This document shows positions 43,292 to 56,000 of a stretch of DNA of 64,000 nt, in pieces (positions within the stretch are counted from its first letter, which is position 1; each line of letters opens with the position of its first letter). Position numbers and translations under genes: made by a program. This DNA comes from Clostridia bacterium (GTDB taxonomy: Bacteria; Bacillota; Clostridia; TANB77; CAG-465), in assembly GCA_045604405.1 (NCBI GenBank), contig JAZUNZ010000047.1, positions 14,663-78,662 of the forward strand. Direction: 5' to 3'. The notes beneath the pieces were generated by a model that was not told where the DNA came from, searched no databases, and saw nothing but the letters and a program-made list of their open reading frames with translations.

Positions 43292-43927
43292 ATGGAAAAA
43301 AATGATAGTGAATTAAGTCAAAATGAACTAAATATTTTAAATTATATAAGGAAACAAGTTAAAGAGGTTGGATATCCACCTTCTGTAAGAGAACTTTGTA
43401 AGGCCGTTGGACTAAAATCTACATCATCAGTACACTTATATTTATCTCGTTTAGCAGAAAAAGGGTATATAAAAAAAGGAAACTTAAAAACAAGAGCGTT
43501 GAAAGTTACAGGTGAAAGTGTAGCTGAGGCAAAAGATCCAGACATGCTGGAAATACCACTTGTTGGTCAAGTGGCAGCAGGTCTTCCAATTCTTGCTGAA
43601 GAAAATATAGAAGAATATGTAAAACTACCTTCAAGTATGGTAAAACAAAATACAAAAGCTGAAGGAACATACATGCTTAAAGTTAAAGGCGATAGCATGA
43701 TAAATGTTGGAATTTTCTCAGGAGATTATATTATAGTATCTAAATGTCAAACTGCAGAAAATGGGCAAATTATAGTAGCTTTAGTAGACAACGAAGCTAC
43801 TGTTAAAACTTTCTATAAAGAAAAAGAACATATAAGACTACAACCTGAGAATGATACAATGGAACCAATCATTGTAAAAGATGTGCAAATACTTGGAAAA
43901 GTTGTAGGATTAATTAGAAGATTTTAA
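43292..43927 (+). CDS. lexA: LexA repressor.
   Basis: N-terminal wHTH, an A-G cleavage region (QVAAGLP), and the S24 peptidase Ser/Lys motifs (GDSM..VVGLIR). Confidence 0.93.
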   Translation: MEKNDSELSQNELNILNYIRKQVKEVGYPPSVRELCKAVGLKSTSSVHLYLSRLAEKGYIKKGNLKTRALKVTGESVAEAKDPDMLEIPLVGQVAAGLPILAEENIEEYVKLPSSMVKQNTKAEGTYMLKVKGDSMINVGIFSGDYIIVSKCQTAENGQIIVALVDNEATVKTFYKEKEHIRLQPENDTMEPIIVKDVQILGKVVGLIRRF

Positions 43928-43977
43928 ATCACATGTCCCAACCTCTGGCATAAAATATAATATGCCGGAGGTAAATT

Positions 43978-44556
43978 ATGCTAAAAAACTTAAAAGTAGG
44001 ACTAGGGATAACGGGATCATTTTGTAATTTATCTAAGGTGAAGCCTGAAATAGATATGTTAAAGGCTGAGGGAGTAGAAAAAATATTACCTATAGTATCG
44101 TATAGTATTTTGACAGAGACAAATAGGTTTGGTACACCCGAGGATACTATAACTCTACTAAAAGATGAAACAGGTGAGGAGATAGTGGATACTATTTCTA
44201 AGGCTGAGCCAATAGGCCCAAAAAACTTAGTAGATATTATTGTTGTAGCACCTTGCACAGGAAATACTATAGCCAAGCTTGCACACGGCATCACAGATAC
44301 GCCTGTTCTTATGGCTATAAAAGGGCATATTAGGAACAATAAACCAGTAGTATTAGGTGTAGCAACAAATGATGGAATGGGTGCAAATGGTGAAAATATT
44401 TTAAAACTTTTAAATACGAAAAATATATACTTTATTCCATTTACACAAGATGATCCAGAAAAAAAGCCAAAATCTTTAGTATATGACTACACAAAATTAG
44501 TAGATACTATGAAGCTGGCATTACAAAATAAACAAATAGGGCCAATTATTATATAA
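43978..44556 (+). CDS. dpaB: Dipicolinate synthase subunit B (SpoVFB/DpaB)-like flavoprotein.
   Basis: Collinear with Bacillus SpoVFB: KAEPIGPK, VVAPCTGNTIAKLAHGITDTPVLMA, NNKPVVLGVATNDGMGANG, IYFIPFTQDDPEKKP. Confidence 0.75.
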   Translation: MLKNLKVGLGITGSFCNLSKVKPEIDMLKAEGVEKILPIVSYSILTETNRFGTPEDTITLLKDETGEEIVDTISKAEPIGPKNLVDIIVVAPCTGNTIAKLAHGITDTPVLMAIKGHIRNNKPVVLGVATNDGMGANGENILKLLNTKNIYFIPFTQDDPEKKPKSLVYDYTKLVDTMKLALQNKQIGPIII

Positions 44557-44660
44557 TGTATAGCGGGAAGTTATAATACTTACCCGCTTTAGTATATACA
44601 ATTTTACAAAAATATTATATAATAGTGAGGAGAATAAAACGGATTTAGGAGGATAATAAA

Positions 44661-45086
44661 GTGCTAATAAAAGAGTTTGAAGATAGATATCGCGATGACC
44701 TAATATACATGGTTTTAAGTGCAAAGAATGCTTTAGGAAGAGTTCCTAAATTAAACGAGGATTTGTTGGATATAAAACAGAATTATTTAGATAAGGGACA
44801 AGCTTTTTGGATTGCAGTAGACGAATTTGATAGAGTGATTGGATGCATTGGAACTAAAATAGATGATGAAGGAAATGTGTTTTTATCTAGACTTTATGTT
44901 AGATTTGATTTAAAGAGAAAAGGAATTGGAGGCAGGCTGTTGGAAACCGCTGAAAATTTCGCAAGAGAAAAAGGGTACAAAGAACTACATGTACACCTTG
45001 CAAAAGATTATCTAGAAAGCGACATATTTTATTCTAAACATGGATATCAAGAATACAAAGAGCTTTATAGGAAAAAAGAGTTATAA
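44661..45086 (+). CDS. GNAT family N-acetyltransferase.
   Basis: RGKGIGGRLLE acetyl-CoA binding motif. Confidence 0.8.
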   Translation: MLIKEFEDRYRDDLIYMVLSAKNALGRVPKLNEDLLDIKQNYLDKGQAFWIAVDEFDRVIGCIGTKIDDEGNVFLSRLYVRFDLKRKGIGGRLLETAENFAREKGYKELHVHLAKDYLESDIFYSKHGYQEYKELYRKKEL

Positions 45087-45111
45087 TTGAGAGTAATATA
45101 TGAGGGTAAAT

Positions 45112-45453
45112 ATGATAAAAAAATATAAAGTAATAACTTTGTGCGGTTCTACTAGATTCAAAGATGAATTTTTAAAAGCACAAAAATAGCTGACCTTACA
45201 AGGAAACATTGTAATTTCTGTTGGACTATTTGGACACTCAGGAGATTCTGAAGTTTGGGAAAACATGGATGAGGGGACATTAACAAAGACAAAAGAAATG
45301 TTAGATGATATGCACAAACGAAAAATTGATATGGCAGATGAAATATTTGTTGTAAATGTTGGTGGTTATATAGGAGATAGCACTAAATCTGAAATAGAAT
45401 ATGCAATTTCAACAAACAAAAAAGTTAATTATTTAGAGTCCAATGAACAATGA
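45112..45453 (+). pseudogene. Small nucleoside 2-deoxyribosyltransferase-like / DUF4406-like gene interrupted by a single in-frame TAG at 45187-45189.
   Basis: GAGGG RBS followed by ATG 45112: MIKKYKVITLCGSTRFKDEFLKAQK*. The same frame continues LTLQGNIVISVGLFGHS..MDEGTL.. to 45453. Confidence 0.55.
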
Positions 45454-45481
45454 GAAGAACAAAAATAAGAAGGTTAAAAAG

Positions 45482-45898
45482 ATGAATCTTAAAATAGAGT
45501 ATTTTATTAATGCTAAAGATTATTTGATGTTAAGAAGTGAATTAGGTTGGAAACAAATAAAAGAAGGACAAGCAGAGAGAGCTTTAAAAAAATCTATGAT
45601 TAATATATCCATATTTGATAAAGGCAAATGTATAGGTATGGGTAGAATTGTAGGCGATTATGTTTTAAAGGGAATGTTAACTGATATTATAGTAAGTAAG
45701 GCTTACCATGGAAAAGGAATAGGCAAGTTGATTGTTACTACATTAATAAAAGAATTGAACAAGACGCTTAATGAGGGAGATTTATTTCAATTGGAAGCTT
45801 CTCCTACTAACGGCAATAGAGATTTTTATGTTAAATGTGGTTTGAAATATAAACCAGAGAATCAAGATGGCGTTTATTTGTGGATTAATAAAGACTAA
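45482..45898 (+). CDS. GNAT family N-acetyltransferase.
   Basis: HGKGIGKLIV motif. 138 aa from the internal Met. Confidence 0.75.
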   Translation: MNLKIEYFINAKDYLMLRSELGWKQIKEGQAERALKKSMINISIFDKGKCIGMGRIVGDYVLKGMLTDIIVSKAYHGKGIGKLIVTTLIKELNKTLNEGDLFQLEASPTNGNRDFYVKCGLKYKPENQDGVYLWINKD

Positions 45899-45960
45899 AA
45901 TAAGATAAAAAAGCAATTTATAAATTTGAAAATAGATAGAGGGAAGTGAAAAGTATGAAC

Positions 45961-45997
45961 GAAGAAAAAAGTTTTTCTAATTCCCATATCAACTGGG
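45961..45997 (+). repeat. 37-bp direct repeat, copy 1, carrying the chromosomal rbgA start (MNEEKSFSNSHINW). Copy 2 is at 46340-46376.
   Basis: GAAGAAAAAAGTTTTTCTAATTCCCATATCAACTGGG is identical at both positions. Confidence 0.85.
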
Positions 45998-46102
45998 TGA
46001 TACGGATTTAAGTAAAACCACTCGCAATCACTTATAAATAAATAATATTATTAAAAAAGTTTTTACACTTTTTAATTGAAATTAATAGAAATGGAGGTAA
46101 CA

Positions 46103-46420
46103 ATGAAGAAAATTAGTGATAAGTATACCAGCAATACTTTTGAAAATATAAAGCATACTGATGATTATGACAATGAATTTTGGTTTGCCCGTGAATTACA
46201 AAAAGTTTTAGAATATAAAGATTGGAGAAATTTTCAAAAAGTAATAGATAAAGCAATTTTATCAGCAAATAATAGTGTTTCAAGTGAAGAGGATTGGGTT
46301 GTTGAGGTCAACAAGCCAATTAAAACTGGTAAAGGTAAAGAAGAAAAAAGTTTTTCTAATTCCCATATCAACTGGGAAATACCGACTTATGAAAAACTTC
46401 CCACAAATGCTTATAAATAA
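46103..46420 (+). pseudogene. N-terminal fragment of a DinD-like (DNA-damage-inducible protein D, Bro-N/KilA-N-like) gene, fused to a junction repeat.
   Basis: FENIKHTDDYDNEFWFARELQKVLEYKDWRNFQKVIDKAI matches the DinD N-terminus. The ORF then runs into EEKSFSNSHINWEIPTYEKLPTNAYK*. Confidence 0.6.
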
Positions 46421-46532
46421 AGGATTTAAAGCATATTTCTTTTTACATTTTATAGGTAAAAAATAATAAAAATCCAAACAAATAGAGGTAATTACGACTT
46501 ATGAAAAACTTTTATATAAGAAGGTGAATATT

Positions 46533-47219
46533 TTGAAAATAGAAGATTTAAGAAAAGATTATGATAAATTACAAGTTAAATATGGTGCTAAGGAATTAGA
46601 TTCTATATATAATGGTGGATGCGAAGAATGTCCCGATATTTGTTTTGTTTTTATGAATCCTACTGGTAAAAATATTGCAAGTGATAAATCTTGGAAAGGG
46701 AGAAAGTCTCCATGGTTAGGGACTAAAAATATATGGAAATTATTTTATAAAGTTAATTTATTATGCGAAGAAACGTTTAACAAAATTAAAGAAAAGAAAC
46801 CAAAAGACTGGGATTATGAATTTTGTGATTATGTTTATGAAGAAATAGCTAATAATAAATTATTTATTACCAATTTAGGAAAATGTACGCAAGTAGATGC
46901 AAGACCATTATCAGATGAAGTATTAAAAAAATATCTTAATTTACTATTTAAAGAAATAGATATAATAAAACCAAAAGTAATCATCACTTTTGGTAATCAA
47001 GTTAGTTCTATTATTTTAAATAAAAAGATATCAGTATCTGAAAATAGGAAAACCTGTCATGAAATAGAAATTAATAAAAACAAATATAAAGTTTATCCCG
47101 TTTATTATCCAGTTGGTAATGGTATATTTAATATTGATAAATCAATAGAAGACATAAAGTGGATAATTGAAAATGAAATAAAAAAAGAAGAACAAAATCT
47201 TTTTTGTGAAATTTTATAG
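46533..47219 (+). CDS. Uracil-DNA glycosylase superfamily protein, Mug/family-2-like in its motifs (cargo of E1).
   Basis: ICFVFMNPTGK (G-x-NP motif A-like), ITNLGKC, YYPVGNG (motif B-like). Confidence 0.45.
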   Translation: MKIEDLRKDYDKLQVKYGAKELDSIYNGGCEECPDICFVFMNPTGKNIASDKSWKGRKSPWLGTKNIWKLFYKVNLLCEETFNKIKEKKPKDWDYEFCDYVYEEIANNKLFITNLGKCTQVDARPLSDEVLKKYLNLLFKEIDIIKPKVIITFGNQVSSIILNKKISVSENRKTCHEIEINKNKYKVYPVYYPVGNGIFNIDKSIEDIKWIIENEIKKEEQNLFCEIL

Positions 47220-47233
47220 AAAGTTGTAATAAT

Positions 47234-48445
47234 ATGATGAAATATAAAGCAGCAGCATATCTTCGTTTGTCAAAAGAGGAATTTAGTAATGAAAAAGAAT
47301 CCAATAGTATAACTAATCAAAAACTAATTATAGATAAATATTTAGAAAATAATAAAAAATATGTATTAGTAGATTATTATATAGATGATGGATATTCAGG
47401 TACTAATTTTAATAGACCAGAATTTCAAAGAATGTTAGAAGATATAAAAAATAAGAAAATAGATGTAATAATTATAAAAGATTTATCAAGACTTGGTAGA
47501 AATTATATTGAAACAGGTAATTATATAGAGGTAATATTTCCTGCTATGGGAGTATCTGTAATTTCAGCAGATGAAGATTGTGAAATTGATTCATCAGATT
47601 ACTATGGTGACGATTATTTACCATTAAAAAATTTGTTTAATGATATGTATGCAAAAGATATATCAAAGAAAGTAAGAAGTTCTTTAATAGTAAAGAAATA
47701 TAATGGAGAGTTTGTTGGTAAATTAGCACCTTATGGATATATAAAAGATCCGAAAGATAAACATAAGTTTTTAATTGATAAAAATGTATCACATATAATT
47801 AAAAAAATATTTGATATGATACTTAATGGAAAAAGTAGAAGAGAAGTTGCTGACTTTTTAAATAATAATGATATATTAACTCCAAGTGAGTATTTAAAAA
47901 TTAATACGGAGAAAGATACAACTATAATGAAAAAGTGGAATCCTGAAATGGTGAATTCAATATTGAAAAACGAAAACTATACGGGAACACTATTTCAAGG
48001 CAAGAAAAGAAAGCTAAATTATAGGATTGATAAGAAAATAAAGTTAGACAAAGAAAATTGGATCGTTACTGAAAATCATCACGAAGCAATTATAAGCAAA
48101 GAAAAGTTTGACAAAGTTCAAGAGATTTTGGATAGGAAATCCAAAATAAATAAGGATGGAAGTATTGATATATTATCTGGGATTTTAAAGTGTAAATGTT
48201 GTGGCAGTAATATGATAAAGAGAACATCTAAAGGTAATGTTTATTATTATTGTTCTAATTACTATAGAACAAAGAAGTGTGAAAACAATAAATCAATATC
48301 AAAAAGTATAGTAGAGGAATTTATTAAAAAAGAATTAAATATAAATGAGATTACTAGATTAAATATAAATAATAATATAAAATATATTAGTGTTGTTTCT
48401 AATAATGAAATTGAAATTATAAAAACGAATGGAAGTGATAAATAA
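47234..48445 (+). CDS. Large serine recombinase (resolvase domain plus recombinase domain plus zinc ribbon), 403 aa.
   Basis: AAYLRLSKEE (catalytic Ser), DDGYSGTNFNRP, IKDLSRLGRN, and C-terminal CKCCGS..YYCSNYYRTKKC. Confidence 0.88.
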   Translation: MMKYKAAAYLRLSKEEFSNEKESNSITNQKLIIDKYLENNKKYVLVDYYIDDGYSGTNFNRPEFQRMLEDIKNKKIDVIIIKDLSRLGRNYIETGNYIEVIFPAMGVSVISADEDCEIDSSDYYGDDYLPLKNLFNDMYAKDISKKVRSSLIVKKYNGEFVGKLAPYGYIKDPKDKHKFLIDKNVSHIIKKIFDMILNGKSRREVADFLNNNDILTPSEYLKINTEKDTTIMKKWNPEMVNSILKNENYTGTLFQGKKRKLNYRIDKKIKLDKENWIVTENHHEAIISKEKFDKVQEILDRKSKINKDGSIDILSGILKCKCCGSNMIKRTSKGNVYYYCSNYYRTKKCENNKSISKSIVEEFIKKELNINEITRLNINNNIKYISVVSNNEIEIIKTNGSDK

Positions 48446-48576
48446 TGGATATGTATCAAAAAAGAGAAATGAGAAAAAATAAAAAGATGGATGAAAACAC
48501 AAAAGGTTTACCATCGACGAGCATCAACTGGGAAATAACGACTTATGGAAAACTTCCTAGAAAGACTTATAAATAA
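48445..48576 (+). repeat. Element-borne substitute rbgA 5' end (MDMYQKREMRKNKKMDENTKGLPSTSINW..), then the element-end module. A second copy of the module lies at 48645-48669.
   Basis: About 85% identical to 52132-52218, which is the copy now joined to rbgA. Confidence 0.7.
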
Positions 48577-48685
48577 AGGTTTTAAATCAGATTTCTTTTT
48601 ACATTTTATAGATGAAAAATGATAAAATTTTAAAGAAAATAGGGGAAATAACGACTTATGGAAAACTTTAGAAAGGAGAAAGAAT

Positions 48686-49702
48686 ATGGTAAAAGATTTA
48701 ATAATTAGAAGTAGCGCTGAAGAATTTATAACATTTAAAGTACAAGAAAAAGATAAAGGCATACAAGTAAGATACGAAAATGAAACTTTATGGATGACTC
48801 AAAAAGCTATGGCGGAATTATTTAATGTAGAACAACCAGCAATAGCAAAGCATCTAATTAATATTTATAATGAAAAAGAGTTAGATAAAGATTCAACTTA
48901 TTCCAAAATGGAATTAGTTCAAAAAGAAGGAAATAGACAAGTAAAAAGACATGTTGAATTTTATAATTTAGATGCAATTATTTCAGTAGGATATAGAGTG
49001 AATTCTTTAAGAGCAACTCAATTTAGAAGATGGGCTACCAATATATTGAAAACTTTCACTATCCAAGGCTATGTTTTAGATAAGGAAAGAATGAAAAATG
49101 GATCTTTTATAGATAAAGATTATTTTGAAAAATTGTTAGAAGAAATAAGAGAAATAAGGCTATCTGAAAGAAGATTTTATCAAAAAATCACGGACATTTA
49201 TGCAACAAGTATTGATTATGATTCAAAGTCTCCTATATCAATAGAGTTTTTTAAAAAAGTTCAAAATAAAATGCATTATGCAGTATCTCGTCAAACTGCA
49301 GCAGAAATTATTTATAGTAGAGCAGATTCAGAAAAAGAAAACATGGGGCTTACTTCTTGGAAAAAATCTCCTAATGGTAAAATTATGGAATCAGATGTTG
49401 TAATTGCTAAGAATTATTTATCAAAAGATGAACTTCAAGATTTAGAAGGAATTGTAAGTGCCTTTTTAGAAATTGCTGAAAATAGGGCAAGAAGACATAT
49501 TCCTATGACAATGGAAGATTGGGCAACTAGAATAGATAAATTTTTATTATCTGATGATAGAGATATATTAAATGATGCAGGTAAAATATCACACGAAATA
49601 GCTTGCGATAAAGCATTAACTGAATTTGAAAAATATAGAATAAAGCAAGATAAACTATATAAATCAGACTTTGATTTGTTATTAGAGGAAACTGAAGGAT
49701 AG
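48686..49702 (+). CDS. RhuM-family (virulence protein RhuM-like) protein (cargo of E2).
   Basis: 338 aa. The segments NLDAIISVGYRVNSLRATQFRRWAT and ETLWMTQKAMAELF are typical of RhuM. Confidence 0.7.
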   Translation: MVKDLIIRSSAEEFITFKVQEKDKGIQVRYENETLWMTQKAMAELFNVEQPAIAKHLINIYNEKELDKDSTYSKMELVQKEGNRQVKRHVEFYNLDAIISVGYRVNSLRATQFRRWATNILKTFTIQGYVLDKERMKNGSFIDKDYFEKLLEEIREIRLSERRFYQKITDIYATSIDYDSKSPISIEFFKKVQNKMHYAVSRQTAAEIIYSRADSEKENMGLTSWKKSPNGKIMESDVVIAKNYLSKDELQDLEGIVSAFLEIAENRARRHIPMTMEDWATRIDKFLLSDDRDILNDAGKISHEIACDKALTEFEKYRIKQDKLYKSDFDLLLEETEG

Positions 49703-49718
49703 TAGAGGTATTAAGAAT

Positions 49719-50171
49719 ATGGGAATTATATCAAGTGCAAGTGGTTCATCATGTTGGAGAGGATTAGATTACTATAAAAGTAAGAAAATAAGAGACATTA
49801 AAAAAATTAATGATATAGAATATACTAGTATTGCTAGTGGAACTAAAGAATATAATGTATATTTAAATTTAGAAAAGTCAAGAAAATCAACTTGTAACTG
49901 TCCTTTAGCAAATGGAAAAAGAATAATATGTAAACATATTGTTGCTACGTATTTTAGTGTTGTTCCGGGAAGTGCTAGAGAGTTTGAAGATGAACAAAAT
50001 AGATTACAAGAAGAGTATGAAGAATACCAAGAAAATGAATATAAAAAGGCGATTAAGTTTATAAATAAAATGTCAAAAAAAGAATTGGTTGAAGAACTAA
50101 TACATATTTTTGATTATGCTCCGGAATGGGTATATGATGATTTTATAAAAAGGAACGATATAGAAGGTTAA
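49719..50171 (+). CDS. SWIM zinc-finger protein.
   Basis: CNCPLANGKRIICKHI (CxCxnCxH). Confidence 0.55.
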   Translation: MGIISSASGSSCWRGLDYYKSKKIRDIKKINDIEYTSIASGTKEYNVYLNLEKSRKSTCNCPLANGKRIICKHIVATYFSVVPGSAREFEDEQNRLQEEYEEYQENEYKKAIKFINKMSKKELVEELIHIFDYAPEWVYDDFIKRNDIEG

Positions 50172-50204
50172 TTACTGAAGAAAATCAATATAATAGGTGA
50201 TATA

Positions 50205-51416
50205 ATGCAAAAGCATAAAGTAGCTGCATATCTTCGTTTATCAAAAGAAGAATTTAGCAATGAAAAAGAATCTAATAGTATAACTAATCAAAAACTAATT
50301 ATAGATAACTATTTAAAAGAACATAAAGAATATAAATTGGTTGATTATTATATAGATGACGGATATTCTGGTACTAACTTTAACAGACCGAAATTTCAAA
50401 GAATGTTCGAAGATATAAAAAACAAGAAGATAGATGTAATAATTATAAAAGATTTATCAAGACTTGGTAGAAATTATATTGAAACAGGTAATTATATAGA
50501 TGTAATATTTCCTGCTATGGGAGTATCTGTAATTTTAGTAGATGAAAATTGTCAAATTGATTCATCAGATTACTATGGTGATGATTATTTACCATTAAAG
50601 AATTTATTTAATGATATGTATGCAAAAGATATATCCAAGAAAGTAAGAAGTTATTTAATAGTGAAGAAATATAATGGTGAATTTACTGGTAAATTAGCAC
50701 TCTATGGATACATAAAAGATCCAAAAGGTAAACATTAATTTTTAATTGATAAAAATGTAGCGCATATAATTAAAAAAATATTTAATATGATACTTAACGG
50801 AAAAAGTAGAAGAGAAGTTGCTGACTTTTTAAACGATAATGACATATTAACTCCAAGTGAGTATTTAAAAATTAATACGGACAAAGATACAACTATAATG
50901 AAAAAGTGGAATCCTGAAATGGTGAATTCAATATTAAGAAATGAAAATTATACAGGAACACTATTTCAAGGTAAGAAAAGAAAACTAAATTATAGGATTG
51001 ATAAGAAAATAAAGTTAGACAAAGAAAATTGGATTATTACTGAAAATCATCACGAAGCAATTATAAGTAAAGAAGATTTTGATAAAGCTCAAGAAATTTT
51101 AGATAGGAAGTCTAAAGTAAATAAAGATGGAAGTATTGACTTATTATCTGGGATTTTAAAGTGTAAATGTTGTAGCAGTAATATGATAAAGAGAACATCT
51201 AAAGGTAAGGTTTATTATTATTGTTCTAATTATTATATGAAAAAGAAGTGTGAAAACAATAAATCAATATCAAAAAGTACAGTAGAGGAATTTATAAAAA
51301 AAGAATTAAATCTAACTGAGATTACTAGATTAAATATTGATAATAATATAAAATATATTAATGTTGTTTCTAAAGATGAGATTGAAATTATAAAAAAGAA
51401 TGGAAGTGATAAATAA
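50205..51416 (+). pseudogene. Second large serine recombinase, inactivated by an in-frame TAA (50739) corresponding to codon 178 (AAG) in the first copy.
   Basis: Roughly 90% amino-acid identity to 47234..48445 on both sides of the stop. cataag in copy 1 corresponds to cattaa in copy 2. Confidence 0.8.
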
Positions 51417-52126
51417 TGGACATGTATAATAAACCAATAATAGGAATAGTAAGTAAACCAAATATTTTTTGTGATCAGGAGTTATTTACACAACAAATAG
51501 TTTATGACGGGGTTAGAAATGAGATATTAAGAAATGGTGGTCTTGCTATAGGGATATTGCCAACAAAAATATCAAATAAATTTTGTACATCGGATGAAAT
51601 AATAGATAATTCATATTTTTCGCAATCTGAGTTAGACGATTTATATTCGTTAATTGATAAGTGTGATGGCATAATAATTCAAGGCGGTTTATCTAGTGAT
51701 GAATACGAAATAAAAGCTGCTAAATATGCAATTGATAATGATATACCAATACTTGGAATATGTGCTGGATTTAATAATATCATTAGAGCAATGGGAGGAA
51801 AGGTTTTTGCTATTAGTGATTCAAAACATAACATGGAAGATGGCTCTATTGTCCATAAAAATATAATTAAAAAAGATACATTGTTATATGATATTTTAAA
51901 AACAAACGAAGTAGCCGTTAATAGCATTCATACAATGTTTGCAAATGAAGATGGTATTAAAAATTTACATATATCAGCATATTCAGAAGATGGGTATGTA
52001 GAAGCAATAGAACTTAAAGATAAAAAATTTTGTTTGGGAGTTAAATGGCATCCTGAATTAATGATAGATGATAAGAATATGAATCGTATATTTAGATATT
52101 TTATCGAGGTATGTAAAAGGAAGTGA
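51416..52126 (+). CDS. Class I glutamine amidotransferase, peptidase C26 (gamma-glutamyl-GABA hydrolase-like).
   Basis: GICAGF nucleophile elbow, then the histidine region HPELMID. It lies between recombinase 2 and the junction. Confidence 0.7.
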   Translation: MDMYNKPIIGIVSKPNIFCDQELFTQQIVYDGVRNEILRNGGLAIGILPTKISNKFCTSDEIIDNSYFSQSELDDLYSLIDKCDGIIIQGGLSSDEYEIKAAKYAIDNDIPILGICAGFNNIIRAMGGKVFAISDSKHNMEDGSIVHKNIIKKDTLLYDILKTNEVAVNSIHTMFANEDGIKNLHISAYSEDGYVEAIELKDKKFCLGVKWHPELMIDDKNMNRIFRYFIEVCKRK

Positions 52127-52177
52127 TAATAATGGATATGTATCAAAAAAGGGAAATAAGAAGAAATAAAAAGATGG

Positions 52178-53062
52178 ATGAAAGCACAAAAAGTTTACCA
52201 TCGACGAGTATCAACTGGTACCCACGGACATATGGCAAAGACACTAAGAGAAATAAAAGAAGATCTAAGACTTATGGATATAGTACTTGTAATATTAGAT
52301 GCAAGATGCCCATATGCATCACTTAATAAAGATATTTATGAAATAATAAAATCTAAAACAGTTATAATGGTATTTAATAAATCAGACCTTGCTAATGTTA
52401 CAGCTTTAAATCAAGCAGAAGAAAAGTATAAAAAGGAAGGTTGTTATACAGTAAGAACTAATTCTCTAACTGGAGAAGGAATAGACGAGCTAATTGCCGT
52501 TATAAAAGATTTAGGTAAAAAGATAAAATATGAAAACAAAACAAGTAATTCATATAAAGTCTTAAAGCCTGTATATAGAGTATTAGTTGTAGGAGTGCCA
52601 AACGTTGGTAAGTCTAGCCTTATAAACAAAATGTCTGGAAGGAAAAGTGCAGAGGTAGGAAATAAACCAGGAGTTACAAAGAAAAGACAATGGCTAAAAG
52701 CAGGTGGTTCAATAGAACTTATGGACACACCGGGACTTTTAAGCAAATTTTTGAAAGAAGATGGTTCAGGAGAAAAGCTTGCAATTGCAGGAACTATAAA
52801 AGAAGAAATATTAGATTTAGAAACATTGGCATATAGCTTAATTAATATTCTTATGTCAAAAAATTGGTATCAAGCAATGTTTAAAGATAGATATAGTTTA
52901 GGCTCGGAGATTGAAACTATGTCTGAGTTCCAAATATTAGAAGAAATAGGAAGAAAAAGAGGAGCTCTTTTAAAAGGAAATATAGTTGACACAAATAAAG
53001 CTGCAAAAATTCTTTTAGAGGATTATAGAACAGGGAAAATAGGGAAGATAAGTTTAGAATAG
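52178..53062 (+). CDS. rbgA: Ribosome biogenesis GTPase A (YlqF). The annotated start is the first in-frame ATG downstream of the element junction. The repeat-encoded N-terminus (from 52132) is in the +1 frame.
   Basis: GHMAKTLREIKEDLRLMDIVLVILDARCP.. is the circularly permuted GTPase. The G1 motif is VGVPNVGKSSLINK and the G3 motif is DTPG. Confidence 0.85.
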   Translation: MKAQKVYHRRVSTGTHGHMAKTLREIKEDLRLMDIVLVILDARCPYASLNKDIYEIIKSKTVIMVFNKSDLANVTALNQAEEKYKKEGCYTVRTNSLTGEGIDELIAVIKDLGKKIKYENKTSNSYKVLKPVYRVLVVGVPNVGKSSLINKMSGRKSAEVGNKPGVTKKRQWLKAGGSIELMDTPGLLSKFLKEDGSGEKLAIAGTIKEEILDLETLAYSLINILMSKNWYQAMFKDRYSLGSEIETMSEFQILEEIGRKRGALLKGNIVDTNKAAKILLEDYRTGKIGKISLE

Positions 53063-53070
53063 AGGTAATA

Positions 53071-56000
53071 ATGGAATTATCACAAGCACAAAAACAAGTA
53101 ATTAATACAAAAAATAAAAGTCTACTAGTTTCAGCGTCAGCTGGAAGTGGTAAGACTTTTGTTGTCATACAAAGAATAATAGAAAGTATAAAAGAAGGCG
53201 CAGACGTATCTAGATTACTTGTTTTAACTTTTACAAATGCAGCCGCCTCAGAATTAAAAGAAAGATTAGTTTCTAGCCTATACACATTAAAGGATGAATA
53301 TTTAGATAAAGGAGACAGTAAGAATGCATCAAGAATAGCAAAGCAAATTTCTAAAGTTCCTATGGCAGACATTTCTACAATACATTCATTTTGTTTAAAT
53401 ATAATCCGCAACAACTTCTATACATTAGGAATAGATCCTAATGTAACAACATTAGATGCTGCTAAAGCGACAATAATGTTAAATGAAGCTATAAATGAAG
53501 TGATAGAAGAACAATATGAGCAAAGAGAACAAGAATTTTTAGATGTATTAGATATATTAGCTAGAGAAGATAATGTTATTAACACAATATATATGCTATA
53601 TACAGCATATAAAAACGTGCTACATAGTGATTTGTGGCTTAAAAAGAGTATAGAAACATACAGTACAAATGAGAATGAAGATTTGTCCAAAACAGAGTTT
53701 GGCCAAGTTATATTAACAAGTATAAAGAATAGACTTAAAATATTAAAACTTGAACTAGACTACATGTCAGACTTGTTAGACACGCTTGAAGACTTTAAGT
53801 CAAGACAAGATATGTTCAAGATAATTTTAAATAATTTAAATATTGCTATTGGCTTGGAAGGCTATGACGAGCTATATAATTTTTTGCCACAACTTTTGGA
53901 TATGCCTCGTCTTCCTTCAAATAAAGTTACAGATGAAGCGTTAAAAGAAGAAGTTAGAGCATTAAAGAAAAAAGCCTCTGATGAGATAAAAGATATAGCA
54001 AGTATAATGTATAAAAATTCAGCAGGAATAATTAAAGAGTTGAACGACACGTTAAAGTATATAAACTGGTATGCTAGTGTGGTAAAAACTGTAGACGAAA
54101 AATATACAGCTGCAAAAAAAGAAAAATGTTCAATAGACTTTGCAGATTATGAACATTTAGCATTAAAGGCACTTGAACAAGAAGATATTAAACAAAAATA
54201 TAAAGAAAAATATGAACAAATATATATAGATGAATACCAAGACACTTCAAGTGCGCAAGAGGCTATTATACAAAAGATAGCTAAAGAAAACAATGTAATA
54301 ATGGTAGGGGATGTAAAACAAAGTATATATGCATTTAGAAATGCTAAACCAGAATTATTTACCAATAAATATGATAGGTTAAAAGAAGTAGAGCAAGCAA
54401 TTGAAGATTGTGAAGCTAAAATAATTCTTGCACAAAACTTTAGAAGCAGAAAAGAAGTTTTAGATAGCACCAACGATATATTTAGTACCTTAATGAGTAA
54501 GGATTTCGGTGGGGCAAGATACGAGGCTAAAGAAGCCTTAGTATACGGTGAGGGTTATGATGAATCATTAGATCAAAATTATAAAACAGAGATAAATATT
54601 ATAGAAAAAGAATGTGAACAACTAGAAAACCAAGATGACATAGATAATGAAGCCGAAGATGCTATAAGTGATATCGAAATAGAAAGCACTCTTGTAGCAA
54701 AAAGAATAAGAGAATTTGTGGATAACAAATTCCAAATTTATGATACAAAAAAGAAAGAATATAGAAATTGCACCTACAAAGATATCGTAATTTTATTAAG
54801 GACTGTGGAGGGTAAGTCGGATATTGTAAGTAAAGTGCTTTCTAAGTTTAACATTCCGTGTTTTGCAGACAGTAAGACAGGATTTTATAAATCTGAAGAA
54901 ATTACACTTATAACCTCTTTCTTAAAAATATTAGATAATCCCTTTGATGATATCTCTTTAGTTAGTGTAATGTATAGTATAATTGGAAAATTTGATTTAG
55001 ATGACATGGCTAAAATCCGTTATAAAAACTCAACAAAGTCTGTTATAGAGAGCTTGAAAGATGCAATAGATAAATTAGAAGAAGACAAGTTAAAGAATAA
55101 AATCATATTATTTTTAGAGCTTTTAGACAGGTTTAAAAGGTATCTTAAAACATATAAAATATCCGAACTGTTATTAAAATTATATAATGAAACTGGTATT
55201 TACGAGGCACTAAGAATTGAAAAATTAGGTGAGTTAAAATGCGCTAACTTGGATAATTTTGTAGCTATAATAGCTGAGTTTGAAAAGGGAGAAAACACCT
55301 CTTCGTTATATTCATTAATAAAATATCTAAATGTGTTAAAGAACAAAGAATCAGCAGGAGATAGTCCAAAGCTTCTAGGAGAAAACGAAGATGTTGTAAG
55401 GATAATGACAATACATAAAAGTAAAGGTTTAGAATTTCCAATAGTTATTCTTATGAATACTTCTCAAAAATATAATGAGCAGGACACAAAAGACAAATTG
55501 CAATTTGATGACAACTTAGGAATAGGGCTAGACGTATACAATAAAGATATAGGGCTTACATATCCATCCGTTATTAAACAAGCTATTAAGGCTAAAACCA
55601 AAAGGACATTAAGATCAGAAGCGTTAAGACTTCTTTATGTTGCATTTACTCGAGCAAGGGAAAAATTAATAATTTATGGAACAGTGCCAAGTATGGATAA
55701 ATATACAGCAAAAATGATGCAGATAAAAAATAAAGAGTCGTCAGAGCTTATTGCTATGAGTCTTAATTCTCATTTAAAATGCATATTGCAAGTGGCATTA
55801 AATAAAGAGGACAACTTTAACATTGTTATACATAATAAAAACGATGTAGAGGTTACAAGCAAACAAGAAATTAGATTGGATAGGAATAAAGATAAATTGG
55901 AGGCTTTAAAACAAGCTGTAGTTGATTTGGGTATAAAACAAGACACAAACAAAGTTAACAGATTAAAAGAACAATTGAAGCCAAATGAAAATGTTGCAAA

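Follow-up and report, generated by a model that had tools for sequence, protein, structure and literature searches.

The start of the essential GTPase gene rbgA (ylqF) is already known as a landing site for mobile DNA: streptococcal integrative and conjugative elements (ICEs) and integrative and mobilizable elements (IMEs) integrate in its 5′ end via tyrosine integrases (Ambroset et al. 2016, PMC4701971). These are large conjugative or mobilizable elements bounded by direct repeats of 12-54 bp, and they preserve the essential gene with its N-terminus unchanged and sometimes with replacement of the upstream promoter region (PMC4701971). The stretch considered here, 64,000 nucleotides (nt) of a Clostridia bacterium (GenBank assembly GCA_045604405.1, contig JAZUNZ010000047.1, positions 14,663 to 78,662 of the forward strand; hereafter the window), has the same end of the same gene occupied in another manner. 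The interval from dpaB to rbgA is very probably an accretion array of 2-4 kb elements, each built around a large serine recombinase of about 400 amino acids (aa), with rbgA itself read via a +1 frameshift; taken alone, the element model is held with high confidence. Compared with the streptococcal ICEs and IMEs, the window elements carry a serine recombinase and no transfer genes, have only TGG in common between their junctions and replace the leader, and a phage-integrase domain is absent from all ten open reading frames (ORFs) scanned between 45443 and 53062. An earlier reading made from the letters of the window alone (the sequence-only reading) took the elements for an undescribed family. 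As far as the target goes this was too broad, the 5′ end of rbgA being known from the tyrosine-integrase ICEs (PMC4701971); the serine-recombinase family and the replacement of the leader do look undescribed. The literature on rbgA/ylqF yielded only the tyrosine-integrase ICE papers, with no description of this recombinase family or of an rbgA frameshift. What appears to be new is thus a class of small serine-recombinase elements without transfer genes, specific for the Trp5 codon of rbgA, that replace ribosome-binding site (RBS), start codon and leader.

Elements of the staphylococcal cassette chromosome (SCC; SCCmec), 20-60 kb in length, insert at the 3′ end of rlmH (orfX) by means of the large serine recombinases CcrA/B/C. 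Like them, the window elements use the end of a housekeeping gene, regenerate the target, form composite arrays of intact and recombinase-less units and carry adaptive cargo; unlike them, they sit at the Trp5 codon of rbgA rather than at a 3′ end, and SCC supplies no coding leader, RBS or translational coupling. The window recombinase was rejected as a Ccr protein, with 111.9 bits for CcrB (NF047343) against a cut-off of 900, 95.2 for CcrC against 900 and 61.2 for CcrA against 700. Tandem accretion at a regenerated site is also known from accreting ICE/IME systems. In Tn4451/Tn4453, TnpX alone excises and inserts the element without a directionality factor, the targets contain GA, and a mobilisation gene, tnpZ, is present. 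The window elements resemble these in being small, clostridial and served by a single large serine recombinase, and the catalytic domain of TnpX is the nearest solved structure (2mhc, 5e-24); however, TnpX has about 700 aa with a long C-terminal extension, against 403 aa here, and only the catalytic domain matches. There is no mobilisation gene among the element ORFs. Phage-type serine integrases (phiC31, Bxb1, A118/LI, TP901-1) have 450-700 aa, a coiled coil that enforces attP x attB recombination and a need for a directionality factor; domain architecture, a short dyad attP and a crossover at two or three shared bases are common to them and the window system. Integron cassettes, which are promoterless, bounded by attC sites and served by one IntI tyrosine recombinase, are similar only in forming a unidirectional array of small cargo units, and were rejected as a model: here every intact unit has a serine recombinase of its own, and IntI, attC-like structures and RNA family matches are all absent.

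The evidence begins with the nonamer ATCAACTGG, of which the window holds four copies, all on the plus strand, at 45988, 46367, 48523 and 52210 (junctions A to D). Shuffled sequence has 0.36 copies on average and none of 100 shuffles reached four. Every copy closes a short coding leader that ends in ..INW, and the four junctions bound three units, E0, E1 and E2. The features on which the argument turns are as follows.

45955..45996, plus strand: orphan leader A, MNEEKSFSNSHINW, with junction A (attL type); ATG at 45955, presumed crossover TG at 45994-45995.
45996..46374, plus strand: E0 remnant, 379 bp; P′ arm GTGATACGGATTT..CTTATAAATAAA, then a truncated DinD/BRO-N gene.
46375..48530, plus strand: E1, 2156 bp, with an intact recombinase, bounded by junctions B and C.
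47234..48445, plus strand: large serine recombinase of E1, 403 aa (Pfam Resolvase, Recombinase and Zn_ribbon_recom).
48445..48576, plus strand: E1 leader, MDMYQKREMRKNKKMDENTKGLPSTSINW, the leader itself reaching to 48531; the ATG at 48445 overlaps the recombinase stop (TAATGG).
48505..48554, no strand assigned: junction C, attP-like as read from the sequence, the P arm of E1 joined to the P′ arm of E2.
48531..52217, plus strand: E2, 3687 bp, non-autonomous, bounded by junctions C and D.
50205..51416, plus strand: recombinase pseudogene of E2, with one in-frame stop at 50736-50738.
52132..52224, plus strand: E2 leader, MDMYQKREIRRNKKMDESTKSLPSTSINW-YP, fused to rbgA in the zero frame; ATG at 52132, presumed crossover TG at 52216-52217.
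52222..52228, plus strand: candidate +1 frameshift site CCA C GGA, with the extra C at 52225.
52226..53062, plus strand: rbgA (ylqF) body, starting GHMAKTLREIK (NCBIfam TIGR03596, Pfam YlqF GTPase).

Leader B, ..KEEKSFSNSHINW, has the same 12 residues as leader A and is fused to the BRO-N/DinD fragment (ORF 46076-46420). At junction C the two arms form an imperfect inverted repeat, GGTTTACCAT / ATGGAAAACT, with the TG at 48529-48530 as its centre; arm complementarity around the TG is 12/25 at C, 15-16/25 at A and B, and 11-16/25 over all four junctions. The sequence-only reading had already picked out the four junctions with their shared ATCAACTGG, the ..INW leader before each of them (ATGs at 45955, 48445 and 52132) and the tandem series of E0 remnant, E1 and E2. 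All of this holds up in the window, and tandem arrays are seen again in five or more other loci; the idea of a shared core has to be narrowed, as the part that is invariant across loci is TGG alone. The E1 leader runs on through junction C as a 43-aa ORF, MDMYQKRE..STSINWEITTYGKLPRKTYK (48445-48576), the tail of which resembles a zero-frame read-through of an rbgA that carries the extra C (WYPRTYGKD..).

Comparison with other genomes shows how specific the target is. A scan for the recombinase in one genome per species gave 79 loci, 19 of which (L001-L017, L028 and L036) have a protein at least 67% identical to that of the window, with L042 at 46%. In all 12 of these loci where the contig continues downstream (L001-L006, L010, L012, L014, L016, L017 and L042) the recombinase is followed by rbgA, and so is another recombinase, P0185, on a 3.1-Mb contig. 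The recombinases of 11 rbgA-adjacent loci are 72-93% identical to the window's, whereas the RbgA bodies of the hosts reach only 32-57%, which shows that the element has been transferred horizontally with its target unchanged. On the left, host leaders (MNINW, MNENKTNINW, MSNNVNINW, MQENKTNINW) are joined to the element end, as in GAAATAACGACTTATGGAAAACT, and on the right an element leader ..KSLPSTSINW is fused to [YF]PGHMAK. The left and right junctions of one locus do not agree in the third positions of the Ile and Asn codons (ATTAAC and ATCAAT in L003, for example) or in the base after TGG, and only TGG, the Trp5 codon, is common to both. In L003-L006 the two leaders that flank an element show no relationship beyond this TGG. 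These left and right junctions, which fall at the ..INW codons throughout divergent hosts, support the proposal of the sequence-only reading that integration rebuilds the 5′ end of rbgA with element sequence.

Empty sites exist as well. L082 is syntenic, with LexA, dpaB, one gene, rbgA, addA and a radical-SAM gene; its RbgA is 82% identical, there is no recombinase, and rbgA has a plain ATGAATATAAACTGG start. Among metagenome contigs of the same species, with rbgA at 95% or more nucleotide identity, most have a MEENKMNINW start and no recombinase in the 2-6 kb upstream (L088, for example); in the same group L146 has a 401-aa recombinase and a different leader, and L113 is occupied with yet another leader. 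An ordinary local tandem duplication, with the recombinase genes as bystanders, would account for direct repeats of 85-116 nt with similar spacing elements, which are indeed present, but at least 12 independent genomes, of divergent hosts and with left leaders that are unrelated, have the same recombinase family at the same rbgA codon, and the cargo differs between copies. Plain duplication is scarcely credible on this evidence, and independent insertions at one codon together with empty sites exclude it.

Tandem arrays are found in L006 and L010 (three units each) and in L013, L017 and L081. The units of L006 and L010 that are distal to rbgA have no recombinase or only fragments of one, in keeping with the integration of newcomers at the rebuilt start of rbgA. 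Some recombinase-less units, L080:4337-6037, L010:1034-1842 and 45996-46374 of the window, are flanked by near-identical leaders of host type; a related recombinase may have moved them in trans, or homologous recombination may have spread them or made them uniform.

How an element may insert without loss of the gene can be proposed in outline. The recombinase would pair the element attP, an imperfect inverted repeat of about 50 bp with TG at its centre, with the 5′ end of rbgA, and exchange would take place inside the TGG codon of Trp5, directly before the F/Y-P-G-H motif, the predicted crossover dinucleotide being TG. Large serine recombinases are known to confine the crossover in this way, to the two or three central bases of a dyad that spans about 50 bp. 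The right arm supplies a copy of the RBS, GGAAGTGA, a start codon, a leader of 13-29 codons and the I-N-W codons. This RBS lies within the last codons of the recombinase (..N-G-S-D-K-stop, GGA AGT GAT AAA TAA TG), which so do double duty, or within those of the last cargo gene; RhuM ends ..ENGSDK in L005, L006 and L010, and the amidotransferase gene of the window ends AAGGAAGTGATAATAATG. The leader start codon overlaps the upstream stop. In this way the essential rbgA would stay intact and be read as the last cistron of the element, the old start being left behind as an orphan. The new right junction would keep the rbgA half-site, so that a further element could integrate there while older, distal copies decay. 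All element genes face rbgA, and a terminator scan of 44500-53200 found none on the plus strand and one site on the minus strand; from the two together, transcription of rbgA would pass through the elements or start in them. The leader is dispensable, and Trp5 is the last position with everything upstream of it dispensable. In Bacillus subtilis RbgA the substitutions F6A and H9A cripple GTPase activity, and the protein without its first 10 residues is dominant-negative (PMC3597669).

Developmentally excised intervening elements, such as skin in sigK and SPbeta in spsM, are the model for another possibility, that rbgA is interrupted until excision. The host lineage is spore-forming, with dpaB directly upstream, and the recombinase has similarity, below the NCBIfam cut-off, to XisF-type excisases. 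Yet rbgA is not interrupted: each element provides RBS, ATG and I-N-W codons and the gene stays expressible. The E2 recombinase is moreover broken, and many arrays are without an intact recombinase. An excision-dependent gene is accordingly very improbable. Under the preferred reading, with integration at Trp5, a substitute RBS, start codon and leader let mobile DNA settle in the start of an essential gene and leave its host alive, and the elements offer a plausible route to arrays of phage-defence candidates beside a gene that cells cannot silence.

The E1 recombinase matches PF00239 (Resolvase) over residues 6-158 (1.8e-24), PF07508 over 185-301 (1.9e-24) and PF13408 over 313-369 (7.3e-15). 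In the N-terminal ..YLRLSK motif Y9, L12, S13 and K14 are invariant among 28 aligned members of the family and R11 is at least 90% conserved. The family comprises more than 120 protein clusters at the 90% identity level that are at least 75% identical to the window recombinase, and all but three of these have 396-408 aa. Only 54 residues follow the last (fourth) zinc-ligand Cys. An AlphaFold model, of low confidence overall (mean pLDDT, the predicted local distance difference test score, 59.5; 72-86 over residues 310-400), has in its C-terminal part helices of 6-12 residues and a beta-hairpin and no long coiled coil; a short C-terminus of this kind might perhaps be compatible with relaxed directionality. 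The combination of a recombinase of about 400 aa with an attP of about 50 bp, a target codon conserved across the Firmicutes, very divergent natural hosts and apparently no control by a coiled coil is of practical interest for genome engineering, and the family is abundant in gut metagenomes.

The left end of the elements has an architecture of its own.

46375..46511, plus strand: left-end module of E1; P′ half-site at 46376-46399, a CTTATAAATAAAGG motif, a TTTTTACATTTTATAG..AAAAATGATAAAA stretch and a second half-site at 46488-46511.

The end module ACCGACTTATGAAAAACTT / AACGACTTATGGAAAACTT occurs at 46381 and 48537 and again at 46493 and 48650. The sequence-only reading had put this repetition about 115 nt further in, and the distance is 112-113 nt in both E1 and E2. 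The half-site, A(A/C)CGACTTATG(A/G)AAAACTT, has four matches in the window against 0.15 expected, and its second copies, at 46488-46511 and 48645-48668, directly precede the RBS of the first cargo gene. A second half-site 112-113 nt inside the element is seen in every element of the subfamily, those of the window and those of L003, L006, L007, L008, L010, L011, L012 and L017. Ten aligned elements have a mean column identity of 78% over the 135-nt module, in which a promoter-like stretch, TTTACA..TGATAAAAT, lies upstream of the second half-site. The module may be a promoter with a recombinase-binding operator. No Rfam family matched anywhere in 44500-53200, the module included, with E values up to 1.

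The growth of the arrays can also be read in a second way, in which similar leader/RBS segments, about 40-110 nt long, recombined by homology or underwent gene conversion and the recombinase served only for first entry. E0 does lie between leader copies that are identical over 38/39 nt, near-identical host-type leaders stand on both sides of L080, L081 and the first L010 element, the amidotransferase gene of E2 is set between repeats of about 25 nt over the RBS and MDMY codons, and attR is not a target for canonical serine integrases. However, homology cannot explain the insertions of L003-L006, where left and right leaders are unrelated save for TGG, the inter-element junctions are all at the same TGG, and the arrays mix different leader families. 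As an account of the whole array this is distinctly improbable; for some array steps, homologous recombination between similar leaders is a live alternative.

Several further points weigh against the element model as set out above. At E0, L080 and the first L010 element the near-identical flanking leaders of about 40-50 nt could just as well stem from gene conversion or homologous recombination. Recombination of attP with attR is not a reaction of canonical large serine integrases, and repeated integration at the right junction would thus presuppose a relaxed enzyme; no candidate for a recombination directionality factor was recognised among the element ORFs. The gradient of decay in the window is not clean, E2 beside rbgA being broken and E1 intact. 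The promoter and operator roles given to the left-end module are guesses; a promoter scan of this AT-rich region was uninformative, with 61 promoter-like sites against 60.6 in shuffles. Among viral contigs the one relative of the recombinase is 26% identical, with no sign of carriage by phage, and elements of 2-4 kb without transfer genes offer no obvious route between cells.

The second and more surprising of the two results concerns the gene that the array leads into. Programmed +1 frameshifts at slow codons are known from prfB (CUU UGA C) and from Ty1/Ty3. In glass-sponge mitochondrial genes a +1 shift takes place at rare CGG_A/UGG_A, with the insert 5′ of GGA (PMC5009743). This is the closest described analogue of the rbgA site, with which it shares a single extra base before GGA, a rare codon and conservation of base and position. 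The rbgA site differs from the known +1 shifts in being found in low-GC gut Firmicutes, inside a catalytic motif near the N-terminus, with no prfB-like Shine-Dalgarno stimulator seen, and would be a new member of the +1 recoding sites. At junction D the bases run ATC AAC TGG TAC CCA c GGA CAT ATG GCA AAG, so INWYP, in the zero frame of the leader, and GHMAK, in the frame of the rbgA body, are one base out of frame with each other. The start W-Y-P-G-H-M-A-K that the sequence-only reading gave to rbgA is thus split in the DNA by the extra C at 52225; in the protein it is restored if the frameshift is right. Frameshifting would proceed with the Pro-tRNA on CCN in the P site, a stall on CGG and resumption on GGN to give ..INWYPGHMAK. 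That the extra C is skipped by programmed +1 frameshifting at CGG is held with moderate confidence, from comparison of sequences.

When the frame is corrected the TIGR03596 score rises by 18 bits, from 274.6 for the annotated ORF (profile positions 6-276) to 292.8 (positions 1-276), and the YlqF profile is matched from position 1 only then. The same extra C is present at L014:3045-3060, L081:6039-6050 and L082:5988-6000. Among the nearest 120 RbgA clusters, 81 have W[YF]PGHM in frame, 22 are body-frame ORFs without W[YF]P, 16 are called from the Met of GHM and one, a truncated 242-aa entry, is unclassified, so the signature of the extra C is found in about one-third of related RbgA clusters. 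Metagenome contigs were scanned with AAYTGGTWYCCNNGGNCAYATGG, with any extra base allowed, which gave at least 80 loci (L083-L162). Among the matches listed, all 68 true rbgA genes have C as the extra base (CCA-C-GG in 60, CCT-C-GG in seven and CCG-C-GG in one), and the matches with A, G or T are due to chance, save for the doubtful L140.

Fifty distinct sequences with the extra C (+C sequences) were assembled, 47 from the metagenome scan plus L014, L081 and the window, the leaders of the window and of L082 being among those listed. Their RbgA bodies are diverse, and so are their leaders, among them those of the short ancestral type. A zero-frame ATG is present in 49 of the 50. An ATG in the body frame upstream of GHM is found in only 18 and is lacking in the other 32; 30 have no body-frame start of any kind (ATG, GTG or TTG) there, and in several the body frame is closed by a stop four codons upstream. 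The zero-frame codons for I-N-W-[YF]-P vary synonymously, and the residues that the body frame would give over the same bases vary freely (T/I/F/S, H/R/L/P). CGG is the rarest arginine codon, at 0.49 per 1000 codons in the window and 0.11-0.38 in related loci, and it is absent from the sampled ORFs of 21 of 28 +C loci; it is equally rare in +C hosts and in those with rbgA in frame.

A rival reading is that there is no frameshift: translation of RbgA would start at the body-frame ATG at 52178 or, in genomes with no such ATG, at the Met of GHM, with W-Y/F-P dispensable in these lineages. The annotated NCBI product is indeed the 294-aa protein that starts at this ATG, MKAQKVYHRRVSTGTHGHMAK (identical entry P0001), and the 22 body-frame clusters and the 16 called from the Met of GHM are what such starts would give. 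The features that speak against frameshifting itself are this alternative start within the window, the lack of an obvious stimulatory signal or of any known stimulatory element at the shift site, and the poor re-pairing from CCA to CAC, with no slippery re-pairing known at the extra C. Against a body-frame start stand the 30 +C genes that have none upstream of GHM, with a stop four codons upstream in some, the zero-frame I-N-W-[YF]-P kept with synonymous variation over variable body-frame residues, an inserted base that is always C and always at one position, the strong RBS (AGGAAGTGA) before the zero-frame ATG of the E2 leader, the profile match described above and the B. subtilis mutants F6A, H9A and the dominant-negative deletion of the first 10 residues (PMC3597669). 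Production of RbgA without frameshifting is therefore judged unlikely, but well worth keeping in view. A further idea, that leaders are kept open in two frames to fit both forms of rbgA, was rejected, with a body-frame ATG in only 18 of the 50.

The candidate frameshift also bears on the elements. Compared in register with the rbgA arm, the element P′ arms match its +C form at 16-17 of 30 positions and the form without the C at 10-11 of 30, the former value being reached by shuffles with a frequency of 0.0002-0.002; this homology suggests that the elements arose on a gene of the frameshift type. If frameshifting is right, an element leader works in both kinds of host. With reserve, the balance favours the joint proposition that the RbgA of about one-third of a broad group of low-GC gut Firmicutes is made only via a CCN-CGG-N shift inside the P-G-H motif, and that its N-terminal extensions are fossils of serine-recombinase cassettes that have repeatedly overwritten the start and tied their own transcription to rbgA. 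If true, the shift is a new case of conserved recoding in bacteria, in a core gene of ribosome biogenesis, and could couple the output of RbgA to translation status. Many RbgA entries in the databases are probably wrong, the 294-aa ORFs in being in the wrong frame upstream of GHM and the 276-aa ORFs in starting at the Met of GHM.

The remaining features of the array, cargo genes for the most part, are these.

44661..45898, plus strand: probable older accreted cargo between dpaB and junction A; GNAT gene 44661-45086, pseudogene at about 45112-45453, GNAT gene 45443-45898.
46524..47219, plus strand: E1 cargo, a 231-aa protein of the uracil-DNA glycosylase (UDG) superfamily, distantly family-4-like (Pfam PF03167, 4e-08).
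48686..50171, plus strand: E2 cargo, RhuM (48686-49702) and a SWIM zinc-finger protein (49719-50171), both by Pfam.
51416..52126, plus strand: C26/class-I glutamine amidotransferase (GATase) gene between the E2 recombinase and the leader (Pfam Peptidase_C26/GATase).

The cargo named in the sequence-only reading, a UDG-like gene in E1, rhuM, a SWIM gene and a C26 GATase in E2 and a dinD fragment in E0, is confirmed by Pfam. Its general layout, of end module, cargo and a recombinase whose stop falls on the leader ATG, describes E1 well and E2 less so, where the stop overlaps the ATG of the GATase gene and the recombinase is split by a stop codon. In the E0 remnant a deletion has joined the first 88 codons of a DinD/BRO-N gene (46076-46336) to the ..EEKSFSNSHINW leader; matches to Pfam Bro-N, NCBIfam DinD and PADLOC PDC-S13 cover this N-terminal part only, and a full-length 284-aa homologue is cargo in L001. 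The P′ arm of the L080 element is of the same type as that of E0, which is a decayed element of the EEKSF-leader family. For the UDG-like protein of E1 the NCBIfam matches are below cut-off; copies 90-92% identical lie upstream of the recombinase in L006, L009, L010, L013 and L015. The RhuM/SWIM pair of E2 occurs also in L008 and L017, 98% and 89-92% identical. PADLOC, whose candidate families are for phage defence, assigns full-length RhuM to PDC-S05 (3e-151) and SWIM weakly to PDC-S62, and has no match for the UDG-like protein, the GATase, the GNATs or the recombinase. Elsewhere the cargo includes a 647-aa ATPase, a putative methyltransferase, hydrolases and further RhuM variants, with a load of one to three genes per element. 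A role for the cargo in defence is plausible from these family assignments.

The recombinase copies of E1 and E2 have about 89% nucleotide identity over the 300-nt repeat D1, and the constant offset of 2971 nt between them shows that there has been no indel. The GATase gene opens with the MDMY codons of the leader itself, and stands between two repeats of about 25 nt, GGAAGTGATAA(A)TAATGGAYATGTAT, at 51393-51429 and 52116-52150, that cover RBS, ATG and MDMY codons. It looks as though it was inserted into the start of the leader by recombination between two elements. In other loci its position, between recombinase and leader, is held by RhuM or a GNAT.

Leader A, MNEEKSFSNSHINW, which the sequence-only reading regarded as the chromosomal one, is probably itself the fossil of an earlier element. 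Leaders of this type are borne at the right end of elements in L080, where a recombinase-less 1.7-kb element lies between MSKEGKSFSNSHINW and MSKEEKSFYNSHINW, and in L081, and 12-residue leaders without a single difference are found on RbgA bodies that share only 44-56% identity with one another (MSEEKLTKVGINW, MNEEKSFPKTSINW and MEQNSTKTNINW, for example); for the leader type of A itself the figure is 44-52%. A short MNINW start, like the MTIQW of B. subtilis, is plausibly the ancestral form, and the genes upstream of leader A are cargo-like; it is from these four considerations together that leader A is taken to be element-derived. The N-terminal extension of RbgA, as judged from the RbgA entries P0001-P0120, is horizontally mobile and falls into a few leader families.

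Both GNATs upstream of leader A have Pfam matches. The pseudogene between them (45112-45453) has an in-frame TAG near 45188, and its intact homologue, MNKIVTICGSMKFKD.., is cargo in L016, between recombinase and leader; in syntenic relatives other genes occupy the position between dpaB and rbgA. GNATs and pseudogene are probably older, decayed cargo accreted in the same manner, their membership of the array being inferred. Degenerate junctions were sought between dpaB and 45955 and none was found. LexA and dpaB, for dipicolinate synthase subunit B, lie directly upstream of the array at 43292-44556 and indicate a spore-forming lineage; the GC content of the window is 30.9%.

Recombinases 40-48% identical to that of the window (L018-L079) were rejected as members of the same family, since they carry, in the manner of TnpX, a further extension or ORF at the C-terminus and lie away from rbgA. 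On two Clostridia contigs, at L019:6371-12564 and L045:4626-10466, recombinases 37-48% identical, likewise not beside rbgA, are present as four tandem copies on the same strand, and these may be similar accretion arrays at another target.

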